A program made the translations under genes and the position numbers. The notes under the pieces were generated by a model, which did no database searches, was not told where the DNA came from, and saw nothing but the letters and a program-made list of their open reading frames with translations. 64,000 nt of DNA, from contig OZ024742.1 of NCBI GenBank assembly GCA_964016885.1, forward strand, positions 221,712,001 to 221,776,000, given 5' to 3'. Origin of the DNA: Eledone cirrhosa (lineage: Eukaryota). Positions 14,754 through 63,114 of this stretch are shown here, one piece after another (the stretch's first letter is position 1; every line of letters begins with the position of its first letter).

Positions 14754-15416
14754 CTACATTTTAAATTTAAATTTATATTTAAACGTTGAGTTTAATCTAT
14801 GTTTGCAACAACTGAATAAATTTGTCCGTAGATTAAGGGAATTTTTAGATTTTAGTATAAAGAATATCTCCTCTGCACAGAGGTCACATGTCTCAGAGGA
14901 TGAATTAAAAGGAATCCCTCTTGAGACTATATTCCAAGCCGTCGAATATCTAACGTTATCTAGCTTAAGTTGCCAGAGTACGCCTGATAGTGCCGTTGAA
15001 GATTTTTTGCTTGGATCTGTGAAAGAATTCTTGTGGTTATTATAGCGAAGTTTAAATTCCGTCGATGTGGAACCGACATAGTTAAAAGAATTAGAGTCAG
15101 TATTAACATTACAATTGTATACTATATTTTTAACTAAGCAGTTGTTATTTAACGGACATTTAGATCTATCTCTACAGTTACATTTGTTAACTTGTATATT
15201 ATTTATGCCATTATCACTAGGTTTTAAGTTCCTATTATTTATTCTATTAATATTTTGTGCTAAATTTTTGGTGGATGAGTAGGTTAATTTAATTGTATGC
15301 CTATTGAAAATTGAGTGATACCTATGTGTTCTAGGGAAGCGATTATCAAGAGCTTTGAAAAATAGTTTAGCGATGTGGGTTTTAATGTTTAGTGAGAAAG
15401 GGGGGGGGCAAACCAA
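14754..15416 (-). CDS. PLE linker plus GIY-YIG endonuclease (frameshifted continuation of the RT ORF)
   Basis: PPFSLN, CNCRDRSKCPL (CxCx5C), IVYNC..YVGST..FKLRYNNHKNSF, CDLCAEE, LNLR..CCKH. Confidence 0.9.
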   Translation of the reverse strand: MVCPPPFSLNIKTHIAKLFFKALDNRFPRTHRYHSIFNRHTIKLTYSSTKNLAQNINRINNRNLKPSDNGINNIQVNKCNCRDRSKCPLNNNCLVKNIVYNCNVNTDSNSFNYVGSTSTEFKLRYNNHKNSFTDPSKKSSTALSGVLWQLKLDNVRYSTAWNIVSRGIPFNSSSETCDLCAEEIFFILKSKNSLNLRTNLFSCCKHRLNSTFKYKFKFKM

Positions 15417-16477
15417 ATTATGTTCCTAGTTCTATTTCTTTTTTGGCCTTTGGAATTATTGTAATGCTTTCTATTATAGTTGTTAAGGTTGTTGCCGTAA
15501 TTAAAAAAGTTGTTACTTTGTTTAGTTTGTCTATCATTATCTATGTACACAATCTTATCAGCATATCCTGCTCTAGCTAATGCTTCATTATAGTATTGGG
15601 CCTTTTCGTCGAAAATCTTTCTATTCGACGAGATCCTAGAGATACGTTTTTGAACAGAGTTTACTATAGTGTTTTTGACAGATCTGGGGTGGTTAGAGTT
15701 AAAGTTGACATAGTTTAAGTTTTCATTCAACTTGTGAAAAGGATAGTGGAGACATGTGTTGAGATTTAATGTTATATCTAGGAAATTGACTATTCTATGG
15801 TTGTTCTCAATTTCTATTTTAAGATTAAAGTAATTAAAAAATTTTGTAATTTGTTTACATTTTCTATTTAGTTCAGGGTTATTATTATTAATAAGTAAAA
15901 GCATGTCATCTCTATATAAACCTCCGGTAGTACCAGGTATTTTCCTATGTAGCGAATTGATTAAAAATAAGCCCACAAGGTCAGTTACCTGAGCTGAGTC
16001 GGATGATCCCATAGTTATGTCAAAATTGCTATCTCTATCTGCTCTGGTCCATAGTTTGTCATTAAATTCTATCAAAGTTTTCCTAGCCGATAATATAATA
16101 TGCATTTCTTTGCTAGTTAGGTCAGTATGTTTGAATGCGTAATTTAGTGCCTTATTTAGTAGACTAGGGGTAATAGAAGAATAATAGTTAGCTATATCAA
16201 GTTGAATAAACCTATTATTATTGTTATATTTAATTTGCTTAAACCACTCAACAACCTCTCCAGTTCCCTTCCACAAGCTCAGGTTAGATACACAATCCAA
16301 GTTCTTAATTTGCTGTATCACCCTGTCAAGAATGTTTTTGCTTAATTTGCCCAGGTCCGATTTTGATGGTGCGATCAATCTAACTGGCAGGTCATTTTCA
16401 AAATTCCTCTTGTGATCCTTCATATTGATCTTCGGTTTCCTGGGCACGAAAGGTTGTGTTCTGTTCTCAATTTCCAA
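15389..16477 (-). CDS. PLE reverse transcriptase (5'-truncated)
   Basis: PVRLI, QLDIANYYSSI (motif A), MGSSDSAQVTDLVG (motif B), LYRDD (motif C), VNFLDITLNL, YVNFNSNHP thumb. Confidence 0.92.
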   Translation of the reverse strand: MEIENRTQPFVPRKPKINMKDHKRNFENDLPVRLIAPSKSDLGKLSKNILDRVIQQIKNLDCVSNLSLWKGTGEVVEWFKQIKYNNNNRFIQLDIANYYSSITPSLLNKALNYAFKHTDLTSKEMHIILSARKTLIEFNDKLWTRADRDSNFDITMGSSDSAQVTDLVGLFLINSLHRKIPGTTGGLYRDDMLLLINNNNPELNRKCKQITKFFNYFNLKIEIENNHRIVNFLDITLNLNTCLHYPFHKLNENLNYVNFNSNHPRSVKNTIVNSVQKRISRISSNRKIFDEKAQYYNEALARAGYADKIVYIDNDRQTKQSNNFFNYGNNLNNYNRKHYNNSKGQKRNRTRNIIWFAPPLSH

Positions 16478-17390
16478 CTCGTTAATATGTAAATTTTTTA
16501 ATATGTAATATTTTTAATATTCTTTCGTAATATTTTTTTTTTAGTTTTCTATTTTATTATTACTTATTATTATTATTGTTATTTTTTTTAGTTTTGTTTC
16601 TGATATATATTGAAATCTGCTCTCTATTTCTGCTTGATAGATAATCTTGTAGAGTAAAGACAGGAATAATAATACACATATATGTATATTCAAATTTTTA
16701 TACCACATTGAGAATGTTTTCCGTGAACTTAGAGTTTGCAGAGTTGATCATGTGGATTCACATGGGTGTTTGTAGCTATCACATAAACATATGAATTTTT
16801 TTAAAAAACTAAACATAAGATAATTAATTTTCACACACTATGGATACTTGTCTCATTCAGGAATACTGATATTTACAATATAGTGGAAGTTTTATAAATA
16901 CTAATACATTAAAACATAGGGTTTTTACGCCTCGAATATATCTGGCTATTTTTAAATTTTTTCTCTCGCTATTTTTTTCTCTCTCTATATTTTTTCTCTC
17001 TATATATATCTCCCTTACATTAATACTAGAGCTAAATAAATAAATAAATAAATAAATGTATCATTGATACATTTACTCAACTGACCTCCCACTACCTAAT
17101 TTTCTATATATATATGTATCTATCTCTATTTCCTCTCTCTCTCTATATATATATATCTCTTTCTGTTTCTTTACATGAAGTTCTTCTCTTTATCTATCTT
17201 TCCATCTCTCTATTTTGTTCCATGCATTTCTTCTTTTTCTTCCTTTTCTTCGTTTTCTGTCTTTCTTTCTTTTTTCTCTCTTTCTTTCTCTCTGAGTAAA
17301 ATTTTTTCACTGCCAATTCAACCTCTTCAAATGCAAGTCGGTGTTGTTACGGTATGTCGAATCTATTTATCTATAAAACTGTTTATATTG

Positions 17391-17456
17391 TATTTTGTCT
17401 GAGGAAGGCATAGCATATTGTTAATATGATATCCCCGAAATATATATAATGAAATA
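17391..17456 (+). ncRNA. Minimal hammerhead ribozyme in the inverted pseudo-LTR
   Basis: TATTTTGT-CTGAGGA-[AGGCATAG CATATT GTT AATATG ATATCCCC]-GAAA-TATATA-TA^ATGAAATA. Confidence 0.75.
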
Positions 17457-17493
17457 AATATGGTTTTATAAATATAGTTTCCATTTATTTAAT

Positions 17494-17630
<137 letters not shown>

Positions 17631-17708: not shown

Positions 17709-18716
17709 TTTCTGAATTTGTTTAGCAAGATTCTTTATTGGAAAACGTGTGTTGAAACCGATATTGTTATGGTTATGCTTTGGGAGGGTCATGTTGCCAA
17801 TAAGAAACACACGCACCAGTTTCTTTCACTCCAATTTATTATAAATTAAATTTATAAATTTAAGAATTTATAAATTTCCGGTTGGTTGGTTCCATAACCG
17901 GACATTTGTTCATATATTGTCAAAGTTCTTTCGTCACACATTCTGTGACCTCTTCAGTGACTGGGGATTCTTTTCTTTGTTTTGTGCCTCTCCTTTGTTC
18001 TGTCCTACGCCATCTTGTTTTTGCGTGTGTTGTGTGCTTAGTTTATGCATGTGTTACATCCGGGTGTCTGTGTGTGTTTTTATTTGTTTATTTACATGTT
18101 ACTGGCTGGTTGTTTGTTCTATGTGAATGTGTGTTTTCATTTTGTCCTTAATTGTAAGTTGTGATGTTGCTAGTCCATTCATGTTTGATATTTAATTTGG
18201 TTGGAGTTCATTTATGTTTATTGCCTCTGTGATTTGTCTAAACATTGCGTCTTTTTATCACAGAGGCAATAAACATAAATGTTTCACAGAGGCAATAAAC
18301 ATAAATGAACTCCAACCAAAATTAAATAGAAAACATGAATGGAATAGCAACATCACAACTTATAATTAAGGACAAAATGAAAACACTCACACACATAGAA
18401 CAAACAACCAACCAGTAACATGTAAATAAACAAATAAAAACACACACAGACACCCGCATGTAACACATGCGCAAACTAAGCACACAACACACACAAAAAC
18501 AAGATGGCGTAGAACAGAACAAAAGAGAGGCACAAAACAAAGAAAAGAATCCCTAGTCACTGAAGAGGTCACAGAATGTGTGACGAAAGAACTTTGACAA
18601 TATATGAACAACCGTCCGGTTATGGAACCAACCAACCAACCGGAAATTTATAATAAATTGGAGTGAAAGAAACTGGTGCGTGTGTTTCTTATTGGCAACA
18701 TGACCCTCCCAAAGCA

Positions 18717-18922: not shown

Positions 18923-20014
18923 GTGGCTATGACTATATATATATATATATATGTATGCGTGTAGTTCAAGGTAAAAGGAAGACAAACACTAAAAACAATA
19001 ACGTAAAGTCTTATTTGTTGAGAAAGGTTTCAACGTATTGGACGTCAGTCTATCATCAGGGAAAAGAAGAAAGAGAGAAAAATACAAAGAAGTGAAGGTT
19101 GCGAAAGATTAGTGCACTGCAAGCAGTTCAATATATATATATATGGAGAGGAGGGGGGGGGGAGATATTATATGCTACTATTTAAGACTAGTAAGACCAT
19201 TATTCGACTTCGTAGTCCATACTTTAAGGAAATTGGAGTGTAGATATTATATAACAGATAGGCCCTATCTGTCTAATATATATTTATATATATATTTATT
19301 TACGTACGTATATCACGACACGCACCGTGTTATATTTTGACGGTATTGTATTAGCTCAATGTACGAGAACAGAGCCGTTATATGTAAAAGAAACCAAAGA
19401 ACGCTTACATACTCAAACAGTCTTTATTTGCTTACAATGTTTCATCCATGCCGTTGGGTAGGAATCATCAGAGCTTAATAAACACAGTGCTGAGTATAAG
19501 CCCTACCAAGCTTAGTCACACGAACAATCGGAATACAATAGAGGGTAAAGATAGGGAGATCAGAGATGGCAAATAAGGAGAGAGTACATGCTGGGGTTGT
19601 TAAGCACCAGTAAGAAGAAAAAGAGGAGGGCAACCGTGTGTACAATAAATAAATGACTGCACATCTCCCTCTCTCTTTCATTGTAGGGTCTCTCCGCCAC
19701 TGTCTTGTTTATGATTGCTAATGAGGGAAAAAGGAAAAACACAAACACAATCTTTCCAAAAATGTCAGATATAAAATAACCAGTTATAATAACTTCAAGA
19801 AAAGAGAAAGAAACGAAGTTTATTTCATTCTTTACCCATATTTATGCGAAATATTCCTTGGTGTGTAGTGAAGCCATTGATAGGCTAATACTACTGTCAA
19901 TATAGCAGAGGTTAAGTGGTTGACAGGTGGCAGGAACTAGATGAACAAGTTTTGGTCAACCCAGTGACAAGTGGCTAATTGAACTGACCAGGTCACTTGA
20001 ATATTCACTACACT

Positions 20015-20311
20015 ATGGATAAACCTAGCATCTCAAGAAAGGTCCTTCGCTCTCCGAACCTACGGCGGAAGAAAAATACTGTCCCTGTCGAACAACGTGT
20101 TACTTTAGAGAAAGTATTAGGATTAACCATTAGCTCAACGGCTGGACTAACATGTGACCCAAATACAGGAGCTATAGCATACCAAGCAGGCTGTGTTATC
20201 AATATCTTTTATCCACGTCGCAACAAGCAAACTCACATTTTCAATGCTTCCAAGAAAACCATTACTGCAGTTGCTTTTTCTGGAGATGGCAAGCATCTTG
20301 TTAGTGGAGAG
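20015..20311 (+). pseudogene. MAPKBP1: Intronless 5' fragment (99 codons) of MAPKBP1/WDR62-family WD40 gene
   Basis: MDKPSISRKVLRSPNLRRKK..RVTLEKVLGLT..GLTCDPNTGAIAYQAGCV..PRRNKQTHIFNASKKTITAVAFSGDGKHLVSGE aligns with the MAPKBP1/WDR62 N-terminus (VTLEKVLGIT..LACDP..AYPAGCV..KTITALAFSPDGKYLVTGE). Similarity stops after GE, and the next bases are AT, not a GT donor. Confidence 0.88.
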
Positions 20312-20486
20312 ATTGTTTACCCACGTGCTGTCCCGATCGCTGCCGCTTTTACCAGGAATTGCTTTTGACATGTTCGTGACTGGATTGTGTGTGGAGACTT
20401 TGGTTATATAAAGTCTGGAGCTGAAAATTGAACACATTGTGCTATACGATCTGGGATCTTAAACATATGGAGGTTTTTTTAATGTA
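20312..20486 (+). pseudogene. Decayed C-terminal half of a Neptune/Poseidon-type PLE GIY-YIG endonuclease
   Basis: VPIAAAF / LPG..DMFVTGL / ELKIEHIVLYDLGS*TYGG..N resembles the PLE pattern P(V/I)A.HF..PGH..D..V.GL....E...I..LGTL.P.GLN; frameshifts and stops present. Confidence 0.55.
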
Positions 20487-21505
20487 TATATCCAGCATGT
20501 AATTCTTGTTACTGGATGAGATGCTATGTTTTAGTGATAGTATAAATCCAACTATTTTTACTTTTGAACGATCTACATATGTGTATAATTTAGACTGATT
20601 GGTTATCTAATGACAATCCTATTTCTATATAACCCCTAGACTATCGAGACATATGTGGCCGATTGGTCTAGCCTATACAGTTAATATACATGTGTGGTAA
20701 CTCTTTGCCAGTTGGTTTTACAGTAACTAAAATAATATTGTGGGGCTTTTGCTGCAGTTCTATCTTATAGTAACCCCGCTTTGCTTGTGTATGGCTTGCT
20801 TTATTTGTGGTGCCTGTCTATATACTTGTTATACTCCGCTCTATCCTGTAATAACCCCACTTCGCTTGTGTATGGCTTGCATTTATGTTACCTGTCTATA
20901 TGCTTGTGGAACACCCATGGGCTACGTGGTTCAAGTACCTACCAGTATACCTTGTATATGTATACCATGAATGGGGATTTTAATTACTGTGGCCTTTCTA
21001 GATGTACCTTACGAACATATTAGTGCTTATATAACTATAAGTTACTGAGATCCTATTCAAGGGACCAGCGCTTAAATTCCTCTAGCTTTTTTATGTGCTT
21101 TTTTCTTTTTTCTTTTTTCACTTCTTTCCTTTTAAAAACTCTAAAAAAATCTTTTACCTTTTTTTCACTTTTTATCTTTTTATATTATCTTCCTTTTACT
21201 TGTTTGTATTTTTTGATTTTGTGTGCCGTCAATTGTATCTGCATCTTGTGAGATCTACTTGTGCCCTAGAATTTAGCTGTGGTGCTTAACAACCCCAGCA
21301 TGTACTCTCTCCTTATTCGCCATCTCCGATCTTCCTATCTTTACCCTCTATTGTATTCCTATTGTTAGTGTGACTAAGCTTGGTAGAGCTTATACTCAGC
21401 ACTGCGTTTATTAAGCTTTGATGATTCCTACCCAACGGTATGGATGAAACATTGTAAGCAAATAAAGACTGTTTGAGTATGTAAGCGTTCTTTGGTGTCT
21501 TTTAC

Positions 21506-21580
<75 letters not shown>

Positions 21581-23269
21581 CATACATACATACATACATA
21601 CATACACACATACATACATGATGATGGCTGCCCCCTCGTTATCGAGCATGGCCATTGCACGATATACCATTATTAATAATTATTAATTAATTCTATCGTG
21701 CGATGCCTGAGTGTGAAGATATTTTTTAAAGTGAAGAAAGACTGTGCACTGAGCCAATCCCACTCTCTGAGCGACAGTAGCTATAACTCGAAAAGAAGAA
21801 AAGATCAACATCATCGGTAACTACTGAGCCGTAGGTTTTATATTGGAGTTATCCCAGTTTCCTGAGTTGCCTTCTCCTAGAAGAATACCCTCCCAGTGGC
21901 TTAACCGCGCGGTACATGTGTATATACATGTTTACACACTTTCGGATGGCTGTTGACTCTTATCAGTTCTTCCGCCCTTTGTTAGGTTTTGTTTTTTGTC
22001 CTGCAGGGTGTCCAAAATCACCCTCCTCACCAAGTAAACTTGGTGGGATTGCCGGTTTAGTCGCCGACGACCCAACCATGTGACAGGTTGTACTGGGTTA
22101 CATGTTATCAGTAGCACTCAAGAGTGACCCGACATAACATACATACATACGAACATTATATGTATGTGTGTGTGTCAAAATCTCTTCGCACATACTGACC
22201 CTCGAATCACATCTGGTTGCTATTTCTCTTTATCTCGGTTGATGTCAGTGGTCTGGAGAGGCTGGCCAACTTGATGTGGAGTGAGATAAGTTTTTTCTTT
22301 GGTTATTCGACTCGGGTTCCTCAGAAGAAAAGCATCACTTCGACCTGCTCACGCAAGTAGCCAGATGTAGCGCTTAGCAAAATGCTACGTCCCTCTCGAC
22401 AAGGGCCCGACAGCAATTCTTCCATTGGCACTTCAACCACACAGAGTCATCTGCCACTTGATATAGACAACTCAGCTTCCTTGCCACTGCTTACTACTAT
22501 CTATGCTGGTGCGTACTGTCTGACTACAGCTTGTCAGTTTTTAAGGGAACATCGCTTCATATATATATAAAATAAATAAATAAATAATTGTTTTTACTTT
22601 TGGCAGAAGGCCAGCATTTATCCCAGTGTATTACTGGTACTTTATTTTATCGACCCCGTAAGGATGAAAGGCAAAGTTAACCACGGCGGGATTTGAACTC
22701 AGACCATAAAGGGCCGTAACTCTGTGCTGCAAAGCATGGCGTCCGACCCTCTACCGATACTGTCAATCCACCAATAAATAAATAAATAATAAAACCACTT
22801 CCGATCAGCAAGCCACATTGGACATTGGAATAGTTTCTTTATTTTCCTCGGAAGAAGAGATATTAATCTCGAAATATCAAGACATGATTAAATTAAGGTA
22901 AAAAAACAAACAAGTCCTGTTTCTTACGTTTTGATTTTTATCCGCCCAAACCTACATTGTTGTGGCTTTCAAACTTCGAATTCTTTATACCATATACAAT
23001 GCTTCAAGTAAACTACAAATTCCTTCTTTCCATATATATATATATATTTATTAAAATAACAGATTAAAGTTTAAGCAAAGAATCGCTGCTTTCACCCTTA
23101 ACGGGATCTTCTGAAACTAACAAAGTCGATCTGTAAACGCAGAAGTGGATATTTCAAAAAACGTTGCAACTGGAGGAAGACAGGAAGACGATACTTTGGT
23201 TCGTGGAAACGTTCCCTGGCAAAGAACGGGAAAAAACGAATATAATACGTCATTAATACCCTCAATTTA

Positions 23270-24205
23270 TTGAATGGGTTGTATTACCCGTATAGAAAGC
23301 CGAATAATACGCTTAATTACATAAGTAAGCATTCCAACCATCCTGCCAGCATAACCAAGAACCTGGTAGGAAACATTTCGTTGAGGCTTCCCCGTCTATC
23401 TACTAACGAGCATATTTTCAACGACCATTCCACTTATTACAATGAAGCTCTTGCTCGGAGTGGATTTGTCGATAAGGTAGCATATACAGAGTACGAAAAT
23501 AGACCTAGAAGAAATAGATCCCGTCGCATTTGTTGGTATAACCCACCATATAATATGGAGGTGGCCACACCATTAGCTAAGATCTTTCTTTCCCTTATTA
23601 CGAAGCATTTTCCCCCTACACATAAATATAGTAAAATTTTTAATAGAAATACTATTAAAATTTCTTACTCTACGACTCCTAACCTTGCACATAACATCAC
23701 AGCTTCAAATTTAGCTAAACTACCTAGCCGTAGGAACACGTGCAACCCTGTAGTTAGTACTAACTGTAATTGTAGGAATCGGGTTGAGTGCCCCCTATCC
23801 GGGAATTGCCTCTCTAGTAACATTGTCTACAAATGTAAGGTTGAAACACCCACGTCCCGTAGGGCCTACATAGGGTTAACCGCCAATAGATTCAAGCAGC
23901 GTCTTTACATGCATACCCATTCTTTTCGTTACCCTCTAAGAAGGAATATGACGTCACTTTCAGCTTATATCTGGAGTCTAAAAGACAACCACACCCAATA
24001 TAAGTTACACTGGGAGATCCTAGCTAGGGCTAGATCGTATAACGGAAATAAAAGACCATGTGACCTCTGCGCCGCTGAGGCACTGGAAATACTCTACGCC
24101 ACAGACCACATCTTAAACAAAAAATCTGAGGCAATTTCGGCTTGTAAACATAAATTGCACAAAACTTTCCTGTATTACAGCCCCACGTTATACCCTAACG
24201 GATAG
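23270..24205 (+). CDS. PLE RT thumb plus GIY-YIG endonuclease (truncated, uninterrupted)
   Basis: YISKHSNHP, ICWYNPPYN, CNCRNRVECPL, IVYKC..YIGLT..FKQRLYMH, CDLCAAE, LNKKSE..CKH. Confidence 0.92.
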   Translation: MNGLYYPYRKPNNTLNYISKHSNHPASITKNLVGNISLRLPRLSTNEHIFNDHSTYYNEALARSGFVDKVAYTEYENRPRRNRSRRICWYNPPYNMEVATPLAKIFLSLITKHFPPTHKYSKIFNRNTIKISYSTTPNLAHNITASNLAKLPSRRNTCNPVVSTNCNCRNRVECPLSGNCLSSNIVYKCKVETPTSRRAYIGLTANRFKQRLYMHTHSFRYPLRRNMTSLSAYIWSLKDNHTQYKLHWEILARARSYNGNKRPCDLCAAEALEILYATDHILNKKSEAISACKHKLHKTFLYYSPTLYPNG

Positions 24206-25304: not shown

Positions 25305-25929
<625 letters not shown>

Positions 25930-26244
25930 TCATTCATCCTCTTAAGTTGGCGAAAGCGTGCGACAAATTACTTGAAAAATAATAACCTATGTCGTATTAC
26001 TTGCCTTAACATACTTCCATTACACTTACCACTTATATATATGTGTATGTGTGTGCGTATACATATATACACATGCACACACATGTGTATGTACGTATAT
26101 GTGTGCATGTATGTATATTTGCAGTCAACTAATTTACTATTTCCTTCATTGACGACTGTATTACACCATTAATTTAGCTGCAATGGTTCTTCTATACCAC
26201 TTACTCTTGTACTTTATCTAACTTACAAGAGGTATTATTACGGT

Positions 26245-27110
26245 TGCCAAGTAGTAGTATTAGTGGTGTTGGTAGTGGCGGCGACAGTAGTGATGTTGGT
26301 GGTTGTGGCGGTAGCGGTGATGATGTTGGTGGTGATGGTGGTAGTTGTGGCGGTAGCGGTGATGATGTTGGTGGTTGTGGCGGTAGCGGTGTTGCTGTTG
26401 GTGGTGATGGTGGTGTTTGTAGTGGTAGCGGTGGTGATGTTGGTGGTGATAGTGGTTGTGGCGGTAGCGGTGTTGTTGTTGGTGGTGATGGTGGTGTTTG
26501 TAGTGGTAGCGGTGATGGTGTTGGTGGTGATAGTGGTTGTGGCGGTAGCGGTGTTGCTGTTGGTGGTGATGGTGGTGTTTGTAGTGGTAGCGATGGTGAT
26601 GTTGGCGGTGATAGTGGTTGTGGCGGTAGCGGTGTTGTTGTTGGTGGTGATGGTGGTGTTTGTAGTGGTAGCGGTGGTGATGTTGGTGGTGATAGTGGTT
26701 GTGGCGGTAGCGGTGTTGCTGTTGGTGGTGATGGTGGTGTTTGTAGTGGTAGCGATGGTGATGTTGGTGGTTGTGGTGGTGATAGTGGTTGTGGCGGTAG
26801 CGGTGTTGCTGTTGGTGGTGATGGTGGTGTTTGTAGTGGTAGCGGTGGTGATGTTGGTGGTTGTGGTGGTGATAGTGGTTGTGGAAGGAGCGGTGTTGGT
26901 GTTGGTGGTGATGGTGGTGTTTGTAGTGGTAGCGGTGGTGATGTTGGTGGTTGTGGTGGTGATAGTGGTTGTGGCGGTAGCGGTGTTGTTGTTGGTGGTG
27001 ATGGTGGTGTTTGTAGTGGTAACGGTGGTGATGTTGGTGGTTGTGGTGGTGATAGTGGTTGTGGAGGGAGCGGTGTTGGTGTTGGTGTTGGTGTTGGTGA
27101 TGGTGATGGT
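26245..27110. repeat. GGT-rich minisatellite, about 69/78-bp higher-order unit
   Basis: Recurrent GGTGGTGATGGTGGTGTTTGTAGTGGTAGCGGTGGTGATGTTGGTGGT..GATAGTGGTTGTGGCGGTAGCGGTGTT; several frames open on both strands. Confidence 0.9.
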
Positions 27111-27336
27111 GTTATACACTTGGTATTGGTTGATATGCTGCACCTGTTAGTGTTGACGTTGTTATGCACTTTGTGGTGTTACTGGAAGTGTTGTTGCACT
27201 GGGTAAAACTTAGACGAAGAGAAGAGGCTTGTAGTAATAGCTTTTCTCTTCCAACCAGCAATTATTTTTTTAGTTTAATTTTGTCTATGATATTATATAA
27301 TGAGATGGCATTATTTCGATTGCAGTATTGGTAGAG

Positions 27337-38004: not shown

Positions 38005-38881
38005 TCATCATCATCATCATCAACGTTTAACGTCCGTGTTCCACGCTTGCATGGGTTTGGACGGGGGTATTCCCACTTGAGGCAAGAGTGATTGTCTTGC
38101 TCGCATAGGACTGTCTGGCAGGTTTTCTACAGTTGGATGCCCTTCCTAACACCAACCACATTTACAGTGTGGGACTGGGAGGTTTTTACCGTGTTGCCTA
38201 CACGGCCACATAACAGCGTGGACTGTGTGTTTTTTTGTCGTGACACCTACACGATCTCATTTGTTTCGGCCTGGATGTTGTGGCACCAACATAACTTTAC
38301 ATAGGAGGGGGTGGTGTGGATGGGGGTGTGGGTGGTGGGACGGGGGTGTATTTTGTTAGAGATGCCTACTGGCTGTAGTAGGTTTTACTATGTATTTAGG
38401 TAAGGCGGGTCTTCTCTATTACTGAGTACCGCCAAAGGTCTCGGTCCAGTGACATTGTCTTGGAGAGGTGTAAGTGTGTGAGGTCGGAGTTTATCAGCTC
38501 GTCCCAGGATTTTCTAGGTCTGCCTATTCCGTGGCTACCGTCTATCTTTATTGCCCTGCACTTTGTTATACAGCTATCGACTTTCATGCGCATCACGTGT
38601 CCGTACCAACGTAGCCTTCTCTCGAGTAAACAACATCTGATCCCTCTTATTTCTAATTTTTTCCTTAGTTCGTTTATGCTTTGCCGTTCACGTATATTAC
38701 TATTACACATCCAGCGGAGCATGCAAGCTTCGTTCCTCTCTAGTCTGCGTATATCCTCTGCGCACAATGCCCAGGTCTCGCTGCCATGCAACATTGCTGT
38801 TCGTATGCAGGCTTCATACAACCTGCCTTTCATTTTTAGGGAGAACCCTTTAGCGGCTAACAGTGGTATAAGCTCTCTGAA

Positions 38882-38885
<4 letters not shown>
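38005..38885 (-). mobile_element. RTE-clade LINE 3' end with UTR and (GAT)n tail
   Basis: KGRLYEACIRTAMLHGSETW..RRLRWYGHVMRM..GRPRKSW; the tail GGACGTTAAACGTTGATGATG recurs in many short repeats in the window. Confidence 0.85.
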
Positions 38886-49829: not shown

Positions 49830-51045
49830 TTATATCATCCGGGTGTGCTTATTGCACAGATCGCTATGACTCATTCTCTCCAGCCTATTCGGGCTGCCAT
49901 TGCTCGTGGTAAGTCTTCTAGGGTTCACTCAGAATCCTCACACAGTTGCTTTATGTAGGTTCGATGTGGTCTACCAACATTTGTGTACCCATGCTTCGGT
50001 TCTCAAAGGAGAACATCTCCAGCAACGTCCAGCAAATTCTTTCTCTGATATTGGTTGTCATTTACCATGGAGAAGTTCTTTCATAGAGTGTTGTCTCCAG
50101 CATTCTTGTATAAGTTCTTTCAATTTTTCTTTTCAAGACGCTTTGTTAGAATCCATGTTGTACACCCATATAACAGAACTGACTGCATAACCACTTGAAA
50201 GAAATCACGTTTCAAATTTAATGGAAGCTTAGATTTCCAGACCATTGATAATTTATTTAAATTAGCCCAGACTTTACTGATTCGGATATGAACATCATAT
50301 CCAGACAGATCATCCTTTGCAATTTTACTTCCAAGTGCTTTTGTGTCATTTGGGTATGTGAATGTCCACTGCTTGCAAACTCGCTTTTGATATCTTGTGT
50401 TAAGACAGATGAGACCATTGTCAGATATGAATTCATACAGGTATTCTCCATTCCAATTAGTTGTTTCATTGCAGCTGTATTTGTATTCATTCTTTGCAAG
50501 GTGAGCATTCATATCTCCTCCTATAAGCAAGACATTATGACAAGGTGTTTGTATCACAAGAGAAGAGAGTTCATGGTAGAACATGACAACCTCTATTTCA
50601 TCAGAGACATTTGTTGGACAGTAGCAAAGATATAACAGAGATGTGTGTGTTTCTGTTAAAGGATGGATCAATACTGTTGAGCAAGCAGAGACCATGGGGA
50701 CTGAGTAGCATTCCTACACCTCCCAGTGTAGAGTTATTAGAGTCTTGTCATGCTGAAGCTGAGATAAAGGCCCATCCATTTCCAACATCATCATGATATT
50801 TTAGTTCGAGATTACTGTGATGAAACAGTTTCTTTTATACAACTTATACTGGTATTTTGCTTGACAGCTGATGCAGTAAGTTCTGGTAACTGATTTATGG
50901 GGTTTAATGTTCAGACATTGAAAGTGGAAACGTTGAAATACTTTTTACATTTTAAAAGGTTTGGTTTTGAGTTTAACTTCATTGCTGACTTTTCAAACAC
51001 TGTAGCGAAAGTCACAACCTCAGCAGGACATGCTCCTTTAAACGT
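49830..51045 (-). mobile_element. Internally deleted RTE-like LINE (APE endonuclease joined to post-RT C-terminus)
   Basis: STFNV, YCPTN, LLIGGDMNAH, NGEYL..F..NGL..NT.YQK..WTF then directly LGS..DVHIRISK.W..L..VWKS..SVLLYGCTTW. Confidence 0.8.
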
Positions 51046-61906: not shown

Positions 61907-63114
61907 TGAGAGTGGGCGGAAAAGTTCATAAGCTGACTGAAGGAGTGATGCTAGAGCTGTAAAATCGTGTATGCATTAATTTCAGCTCTTCTTATTAATA
62001 ACTGCATTGTTTCTTTCCAGGTAAACTGACATCTGACTGTTCAAAGAAGACTTCAAGTGTAACTAGTAGTGACTTCTCTTGAAAATTGACAAAATTTGGC
62101 ATCATGGTGTCATCAAGTACCTGCAGAAAAAGGGTTTAGAGCCCAAGGTCATTAATGCTGACATAGTTGCTACATTAAGGGATGATGATCCAGATTTATC
62201 AACAGTGCAAAAGGGAGCTGCTGAATTTGGGAGGGGAAGGGAGAGTCTTGAAGATGACTGAACTCTGAATGTCCTGCAACTGCCACAACCAAGGAAAACA
62301 TTGATCATGTTCACCACATGGTGATGGATGAAAGGCGATTAACTATAAATCAAATAGCCAATGCTATTATCATATCCCACAAGAGAGTTGAGAATATTCT
62401 GCACAATAAACTTGGCATGGCGAAGGTTTCTGCTTGGTGGGTGCCATGTCTTCTGACACCTGATTAAAAGCACACCAGGCTGATTACTTCACGGGAAAAT
62501 CTGACATTGAGGCAGCTGGTTTCCTATGTGTTGAGTTCATTACTTCGAGTCACAGACAAAGAGATAATCCAGGCAGTGAAAACACCCCTCCTCACCTGCT
62601 CAAAAGAAGGCCAAGGTCATTTCATCTGTAGGGAAGGCAATGGCCTCAGTGTTGACTTAAAAGCCATTGTGTTTATTGACTATCTTCAAAAAGGGCCACA
62701 CTATCAATGGAGAGTACTATGCCAACTTGCTAAGGCTATCAATACCAAACGTCCAGTAAAACTCATGAAAGGGTCTCATTTCATTAGGACAAGTCCTTGG
62801 TTTCAATGGCTGCTATGCATGACTGTGACTTTGAACTGGTTGATCACCCCTCCCTATTCTCTTGATTTGGCCCCATCTGACTATCATCTGTTCGCCAACA
62901 TGAAAAAATAATTAGCTAGGAACCAGTATCACAGTGATGATGACGTCATATGTGCTGCTGTTGACTTTTTTGACCAACACGATCCGAGCAAGCACTGCAA
63001 CACTGACGGAAGAAGTGTGTGGACCATAATGGGGACTATGTTGAAAAATAAACCTCATTTGGCCATATTCCATGAGTATCTTGGTCAGCCTATGAACTTT
63101 TCAGCTGACCCTCC
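61907..63114 (+). mobile_element. Full-span degenerate mariner element
   Basis: TA-flanked TIRs (..GAAAAGTTCATAAGCTGAC / GTCAGCCTATGAACTTTTC..); transposase remnants with HTH (GRESLEDD), WVP and YSLDLAPSDYHLF. Confidence 0.9.

Follow-up and report, generated by a model that had tools for sequence, protein, structure and literature searches.

The locus described here lies in a window of 64,000 nucleotides (nt) of the Eledone cirrhosa genome (G000:C3:221712001-221776000, in a genome of 3.0 Gb); positions below are those of this window unless a contig is named. It holds the first three exons of the host gene MAPKBP1/WDR62, joined without their introns to the 3′ part of a Penelope-like element (PLE) and enclosed by inverted copies of the end of that element. 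The parent MAPKBP1 gene is found on a different contig, C2. The locus is well supported as a splice-made MAPKBP1-PLE chimera which was laid down in one retrotransposition event.

Host exons, splice junction, and insertion ends

A DNA search of the genome with positions 19610-20330 returned four matches, namely the window locus and three parent exon blocks on C2. The host part matches only itself and these three exons, and by this genome search the chimera is single-copy. Introns 1 (33,424 nt) and 2 (14,396 nt) of the parent have GT-AG ends, and both are precisely absent from the window copy. A preliminary description of this stretch had proposed, from the intron positions of vertebrate MAPKBP1, that the host sequence was already spliced. 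This was confirmed by the three separate C2 blocks with their GT-AG introns removed, and the proposed positions match the introns of the C2 parent. The search for the parent locus also established that the region is not a single exon, as the parent has introns here, and that the window locus is not the real gene, since an intact parent is present on C2. That gene is complete, with 28 blocks covering amino acids 1-1596 of 1604, and no further MAPKBP1 exons occur within the 64-kb window, as had been described.

The element has a GT-AG intron of its own, 129-130 nt long, and in the chimera exon 3 is joined directly to the base that immediately follows the 3′ splice site of this intron. Upstream of this base, the family copies carry either a pyrimidine tract and the AG closing the intron or the first exon of the element joined directly. 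When the genome was searched with the opening 100 nt of the second exon, 40 of 46 candidates were scored. The intron is kept in 30 of these 40 acceptor-region loci and spliced in 8; one locus is truncated, and the remaining one, the window copy, has foreign sequence at the acceptor. The AG of the acceptor is intact in 27 of the 30 intron-keeping copies. The acceptor is native to the repeat family and is used in vivo. A cryptic acceptor had been proposed earlier; it gives way to the acceptor of the element's own intron, since that intron is a feature of the repeat family itself, kept and spliced at the frequencies just given. By a rough estimate, a random switch would hit a host exon end and the family acceptor together with a probability of ~1e-5, and the overlap is at most 2 nt; splicing is the direct reading of this break point.

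The ends of the unit are those of the carrier family. The inverted arms (19383-19609 and 21280-21506) are 227 nt long and 96% complementary, with 10/227 differences, in agreement with the arms of about 225 bp reported before. The start of the unit had been placed at 19320, which is too far right, as the left arm extends as family tail to ~19290, about 30 nt further left; the same tail is common to the copies L011, L012, L015, L017, L018, and further ones. Host exon 1 and the inverted left arm overlap by 2 nt (CA). An inverted arm with a one-sided tail is present in the window copy and in 10 of 11 other inverted pairs of the family, which were taken from 100 listed of 171 exact hammerhead-region matches, and other copies likewise have microsatellite flanks of the kind seen at the window copy, indicating (TA)n insertion. 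The carrier family usually inserts in this form, with inverted arms, a tail on one side, and (TA)n flanks, and the earlier statement that the ends are typical of a Penelope-like family stands on these other pairs. Host or foreign sequence is enclosed by the arms in none of the 11 further pairs. No target-site duplication is readable in the microsatellite flanks of the window copy, and no poly(A) tail is present, the ends being element arms in microsatellites; for both reasons, the window copy is not a classical retrocopy made by a long interspersed element (LINE). A duplication of the parent-gene region as the source of the window flanks was considered and ruled out, as common repeats alone match. 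The features are listed in Table 1.

Table 1. Features of the chimeric locus (window positions) and the family copy next to the parent gene (contig positions).
Feature	Position	Strand	Description
Inverted left arm	19286..19609	-	Element 3′ end read leftwards, plus long family tail (~19290-19382) into AT microsatellite
Type-I hammerhead-like motif	19423..19483	-	Core CUGAUGA 19471-19465 intact; predicted cleavage between 19433 and 19432
MAPKBP1/WDR62 exon 1	19608..20098	+	407-nt leader and codons 1-28; corresponds to G000:C2:360354421-360353919 (minus), then GTAAGT
Chimeric open reading frame	20015..20368	+	117 amino acids: 99 host codons and 18 element codons; stop 20366-20368
Host exon 2	20099..20190	+	92 nt; corresponds to G000:C2:360320494-360320403 (minus); AG before, GTAAGT after
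Host exon 3	20191..20311	+	121 nt; corresponds to G000:C2:360306006-360305886 (minus); ends at donor GTGAGT
Element second exon	20312..21506	+	First base past native acceptor to short 3′ end of the family; non-coding
Right arm	21280..21506	+	Hammerhead-like motif ~21406-21466, core C-to-T at 21418
Flank	21507..21619	.	(CA)n(TA)n(CATA)n microsatellite
L012, family copy of the spliced type, with an inverted arm	G000:C2:360356129-360358157	Parent's strand	1.7 kb upstream of exon 1

The window copy differs from its parent at 11/703 aligned bases and by indels of 13 nt and 1 nt in the leader. The reading frame that had been noticed at 20015, with 99 codons of MAPKBP1/WDR62, was recognized by Pfam as PF24780 (E 8.5e-23). 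The host peptide is 96% identical to the MAPKBP1-like protein of Octopus vulgaris and at most 70% identical to all others among the matches listed. The branch of the window copy has the changes D26E, P57Q, and T63N, at sites where parent and O. vulgaris agree. Selection on the 117-amino-acid frame is unsupported, the three amino-acid and two silent codon changes being too few to test. By motif reading, the window copy begins ~25 nt below a pair of TATA-like and initiator-like motifs in the parent. Four sequencing runs of one study gave shares of 0.38-0.68, where ~0.39 is expected from parent mRNA alone and ~0.53 from parent exons together with other family copies; they are no evidence either way. 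The chimera shows no sign of function and is probably a non-functional retrocopy.

The carrier family

Judged by its motifs, the carrier family is the 3′ end of a predicted PLE with reverse transcriptase (RT) and endonuclease, bearing Hydra-clade motifs. The family is dispersed in the genome: of 388 candidates, the 40 that were scored gave 59 matches. A 25-mer of the hammerhead region accounts for the 171 exact genome matches mentioned above. Two copies on different chromosomes, L096 and L097, contain broken RT and endonuclease frames which are colinear with the family at ~90% identity, in the order RT/endonuclease frames, non-coding stretch, intron, and second exon. At a third locus, L110, an endonuclease frame adjoins the family repeat. 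The Pfam matches of the carrier-family frames are weak, both below the cut-off (RVT_1, E 7e-5; GIY-YIG, E 0.013).

The endonuclease frame of L110 has a CxCx5C linker, and its conserved E and N are surrounded by CxxC and CxH. The CxxC-E-N-CxH arrangement also occurs in L096 and L097, the latter with a mutated linker. One cysteine lies inside the GIY-YIG core in L097 and L110, and CCHH is absent. The Neptune and Penelope/Poseidon clades were ruled out for these two copies, which have no CCHH with two core cysteines. In the carrier RT fragments, neither RWK nor DKT could be seen; these fragments are 5′-truncated and broken. In L096, the distance from the RT fragment to the acceptor is ~4 kb, to which the second exon adds 1.2-1.3 kb. 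As far as the accessible text of PMC8557442 describes the Hydra clade, it shares with the carrier the CxCx5C linker, CxxC/CxH, the single core cysteine, the hammerhead, and (TA)n targets. Hydra elements are generally shorter than 3 kb in that account, whereas the carrier exceeds 5 kb from RT to tail. The carrier also has an intron near its 3′ end, a feature which the same text notes for Penelope and Chlamys-3 and does not mention for Hydra. Given its length above 3 kb and its placement by motifs, the carrier is called Hydra-like and not a member of Hydra. An inverted 5′ arm and a tail at one end are described for PLEs (PMC8557442; PMC11167929, as available), and tail and short end are there attributed to two internal RT start sites (PMC11167929).

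A remnant resembling GIY-YIG had been suspected within the window copy. It was not recovered: neither Pfam nor a tblastn search with six RT/endonuclease peptides (three from the carrier family and three from other elements of the window) found a coding match in 20312-21280, where all six frames are rich in stops.

The hammerhead motifs reported for both arms are supported as type-I hammerhead-like by motif reading. In the left arm, the CUGAUGA core is followed by GAAAC-AUU-GUA and then by stem I, and the corresponding core of the right arm has changed to UUGAUGA. Core, stem II, a minimal stem III, and stem I can be read in both arms of the window copy and in the family arms, and older family copies differ at the free core position (CUGAGGA). 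The call rests on comparison with the PLE hammerheads presented in PMC4209133, as far as available, and Rfam and folding give no independent backing. Indeed, Rfam returned no hammerhead among 87 matches over the whole window (E up to 1) and none in the left arm alone, and the hammerhead shape is not the minimum-energy fold (folding z 0.37 and -0.83, not significant). In one in vitro PLE system, hammerhead cleavage is dispensable, as hammerhead mutants still insert (PMC11167929, available text); a role of the ribozyme in forming the chimera is on this ground unsupported.

Some further observations concern the carrier family. At least six intron-keeping copies (L006, L011, L014, L031, L070, and L093) carry a short interspersed element (SINE) of tRNA-like type ~106 nt above the element donor, a shared site for which either the inheritance of one insertion or repeated insertion at an (ATT)n spot may account. 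In L059, positions 150-1300, between endonuclease frame and intron, comprise two diverged tandem copies of 440 nt, ~67% alike, with short antisense frames and a possible second acceptor; one of the peptides has no Pfam match. L111 (G000:C3:150129000-150135500) is a spliced family copy interrupted by a stretch of protease and RT resembling a long terminal repeat (LTR) retrotransposon.

Formation of the chimera

Copies of the family differ in where they begin. The start point lies 39-69 nt above the donor in each of the 8 spliced copies and 58-1371 nt above it in 28 measured intron-keeping copies out of 30 (p 4e-5), several of the short values being cut by the SINE-like insert ~106 nt above the donor. 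It would follow that transcription of the spliced templates begins at an internal promoter and that reverse transcription runs almost to the 5′ end of these RNAs. This suggests two pools of template, one of short promoter-initiated spliced RNAs and one of long unspliced read-through RNAs. The window copy fits the spliced pool, with host exons 1-3 replacing the first exon of the element.

The body of the window copy has 21 private substitutions in ~1036 sites. The differences between the arms (10/227), between host part and parent (11/703), and in the body (21/~1036) all correspond to ~2% per lineage, and a single insertion event fits them. This value is near the 2.4-5.0% that separate twelve other young copies from their column majority; the distances were taken without a low-complexity T-rich tract, and the trees comprise 17 young copies of the 29 aligned. 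The chimera arose while the carrier family was active.

The preferred explanation is exon trapping in cis by a since-lost copy in intron 3, followed by retrotransposition to another chromosome; we give this whole chain a probability of about 60%. Its core, which is splicing into the element and an element-type retrotransposition without the cis donor step, is very probable. An intron-keeping family copy would first have come to lie in intron 3 in sense orientation. Introns 1 and 2 were removed and the exon-3 donor was spliced to the element acceptor, as the junctions show. Reverse transcription from the short 3′ end of the family, just past the hammerhead motif, may be read from the ends of the copy; it would have continued to near the 5′ end of the host mRNA, with the inverted arm and tail added at the 2-nt overlap. 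The chimeric RNA was probably copied by the RT of the element, with insertion at a (TA)n site of a different chromosome. Finally, the trapping allele would have been lost, or may lie outside the assembled haplotype. The 5′ transduction that had been proposed in the preliminary description is therefore upheld in its spliced exons, its splice junction, and its PLE-type ends, and not in its donor copy in cis, which is missing and would have to be supposed.

A number of points weigh against this explanation. The structure of the chimera was read from the assembled sequence. The sense-strand PLE that had been predicted in the intron after the GE exon was not found: intron 3 (C2:360281483-360305885) is 24,403 nt long and free of N, and four (TA)10+ tracts within it are candidates for an empty site. 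A donor search by 7-base words took in the complete gene, intron 3 included, as well as 46 kb of upstream sequence; the 310 kb of gap-free sequence around the gene yielded no family piece except L012. The nearest family copy is 4.9-5.0% distant from the window copy (among 40 scored of 388 and 40 scored of 46 candidates), and ~4% is expected for a surviving donor. Host sequence is found at only 1 of the 40 acceptor sites, none of the 39 other acceptor-region loci having captured any, and the event is unrepeated. The position of L012 is itself unlikely by chance, at 0.5% for 310 kb and ~1.5e-5 for 2 kb. In the trees, L012 is the sister of the window copy with 79% support overall and 84% in the 5′ half, the 3′ half being unsupported. 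The link between L012 and the window copy is not explained by the cis model.

Of the minority alleles of the window copy, 11 recur in L012, more than in any of 15 other copies, the next best of which has 8. As a direct donor it was rejected: it has no AG acceptor, it is 6.9% distant, and 12 alleles of the L012/L021/L031 group are missing from the window copy. Several alleles of this group are present in both arms of L012. An insertion hot spot at the parent gene is possible, as the interval from L012 to exon 1 contains a further inverted repeat with a hammerhead. That repeat, in L035, has the core CUGAUGA...GAAAC and belongs to another family; by eye, its end resembles window positions 17428-17494.

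The junction could also have been made in trans, by splicing between the host exon-3 donor and the acceptor in an independent element RNA that still contained its intron; the RT of the element would then have copied the product. This is rather unlikely, although no family copy is present in intron 3 or downstream, intron-retaining copies are common (30 of 40 loci), and host introns of 14-33 kb would leave a donor long exposed before its own acceptor appears. Trans-splicing between unrelated pre-mRNAs is rarer than trapping in cis. Moreover, a missing donor is also expected under the cis model, in which selection would purge a gene-trap allele, and the allele set of the window copy is carried by 0 of 48 aligned family segments. 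Lost source elements are described for SVA subfamilies in the available text of PMC6139936. It is doubtful that the window copy is a fossil of trans-splicing, in which a PLE RNA seized a host pre-mRNA through its own acceptor with no insertion into the gene. If it were, intron-retaining PLEs could capture the 5′ exons of any long-intron gene, and a donor-free route of exon shuffling would exist in the PLE-rich genomes of cephalopods. A route through L012 is improbable. Here a read-through RNA would be back-spliced to a circle and copied by RT, or L012 and the window copy would be daughters of one local source, as its place 1.7 kb upstream on the same strand, the low chance of that position, and the shared minority alleles could suggest; the objections raised to L012 as a donor (its spliced type without AG at the acceptor site, its distance, and the missing group alleles) apply here too, and an RT copying a circle would not be expected to halt close to the predicted host start site.

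Still less weight is due to a switch of RT from element RNA to spliced host mRNA with no splicing between them, on the model of LTR-mediated retroposition. The 2-nt AG overlap with intron-retaining copies would allow it, and such switches are documented for LTR elements (PMC5131818). However, the overlaps reported in the accessible part of that source have a median of 6 bp and are located anywhere, and both break points would have to fall on splice sites by the small chance given above; this makes the switch very improbable. The last group of alternatives comprises an assembly artefact, cDNA contamination, a real gene, or a LINE-made retrocopy later hit by the element, and is scarcely credible. 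It draws on the repeat-rich neighbourhood and on a structure read from the assembly. Conversely, 11 substitutions and 2 indels relative to the parent, 10 differences from arm to arm, and 21 private changes in the body mark old genomic DNA, the real gene sits on C2, and a later insertion would require a cut at the exon end and an element copy starting at its own acceptor.

Comparison with known systems and neighbouring sequences

The closest structural likeness to cis trapping followed by retrotransposition is found in human SVA_F1, with MAST2 exon 1, and in chimpanzee pt_SVA_D6, with STK40 exon 1. In both, as here, a host 5′ exon was spliced to an internal acceptor and retrotransposed, according to the available text of PMC6139936 and PMC10681720, and the captured exons replace the 5′ part of the element. 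These subfamilies are mobilized by L1, are poly(A)-tailed, and number 84-94 copies in those accounts, whereas the window chimera is one copy with a PLE carrier. Unlike them, it also has a native intron acceptor, three exons, and inverted arms in (TA)n, and shows neither a source element in the host intron of the assembly nor amplification of a subfamily.

In Adineta vaga, a gene of the nonribosomal peptide synthetase type (NRPS) lies between pseudo-LTRs (pLTRs) and is likewise a host coding sequence moved in trans with an inverted 5′ pLTR, as described in the accessible parts of PMC3846280 and PMC6431247. That gene has kept all its introns and has two direct pLTRs and an 8-bp target duplication, and an antisense template has been proposed for it (PMC3846280). 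The window chimera, by contrast, lacks the host introns and is joined at a splice junction, so that a spliced sense template is required. LTR-mediated retroposition embeds partial spliced mRNA in retroelement sequence in a similar way, but it joins at micro-similarity anywhere, according to the available text of PMC5131818, whereas the 3′ join in the window lies on two splice sites.

PLEs are known to keep introns when they move, those of host genes included, and an antisense template has been proposed (PMC3846280, accessible text). At the window locus, the RNA that a PLE copied was of sense orientation and fully spliced; it contained three splice junctions, and its host portion exceeds 700 nt. 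The carrier family offers in this regard a direct test case for the puzzle of intron retention in PLEs. With its retained intron, each sense-strand intronic copy is a potential gene trap, and this potential amounts to an SVA-like route of exon shuffling for PLEs. The evidence is limited to one event and one copy, without sign of function. An Octopus repeat annotation (PMC13282606) and a retrozyme preprint (10.64898/2026.07.22.740005) do not mention such a capture in their available text, and no report of splice-mediated host capture by a PLE was found in literature lying largely outside subscription journals.

The neighbourhood of the chimera in the window is a nest of PLE insertions. Another inverted pair, at 17880-18198 and 18319-18637, has arms of 319 nt and 95% identity, each with a hammerhead-like core (CUGAAGA...GAAA), and a third copy of this PLE-type family lies near 25642 (25400-25800). 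Two other PLE families are represented by RT and endonuclease frames at 14754-16513 (minus strand) and 23246-24205 (plus strand), which have the same Hydra-type motifs; their peptides are 34-49% identical to those of the carrier family. Positions 26173-27206 form a long degenerate tandem repeat which is open in several frames and is probably non-coding. By their look, 38396-38884 (minus), 50120-50713 (minus), and 62468-62911 (plus) are what we take to be remnants of LINE and mariner type.

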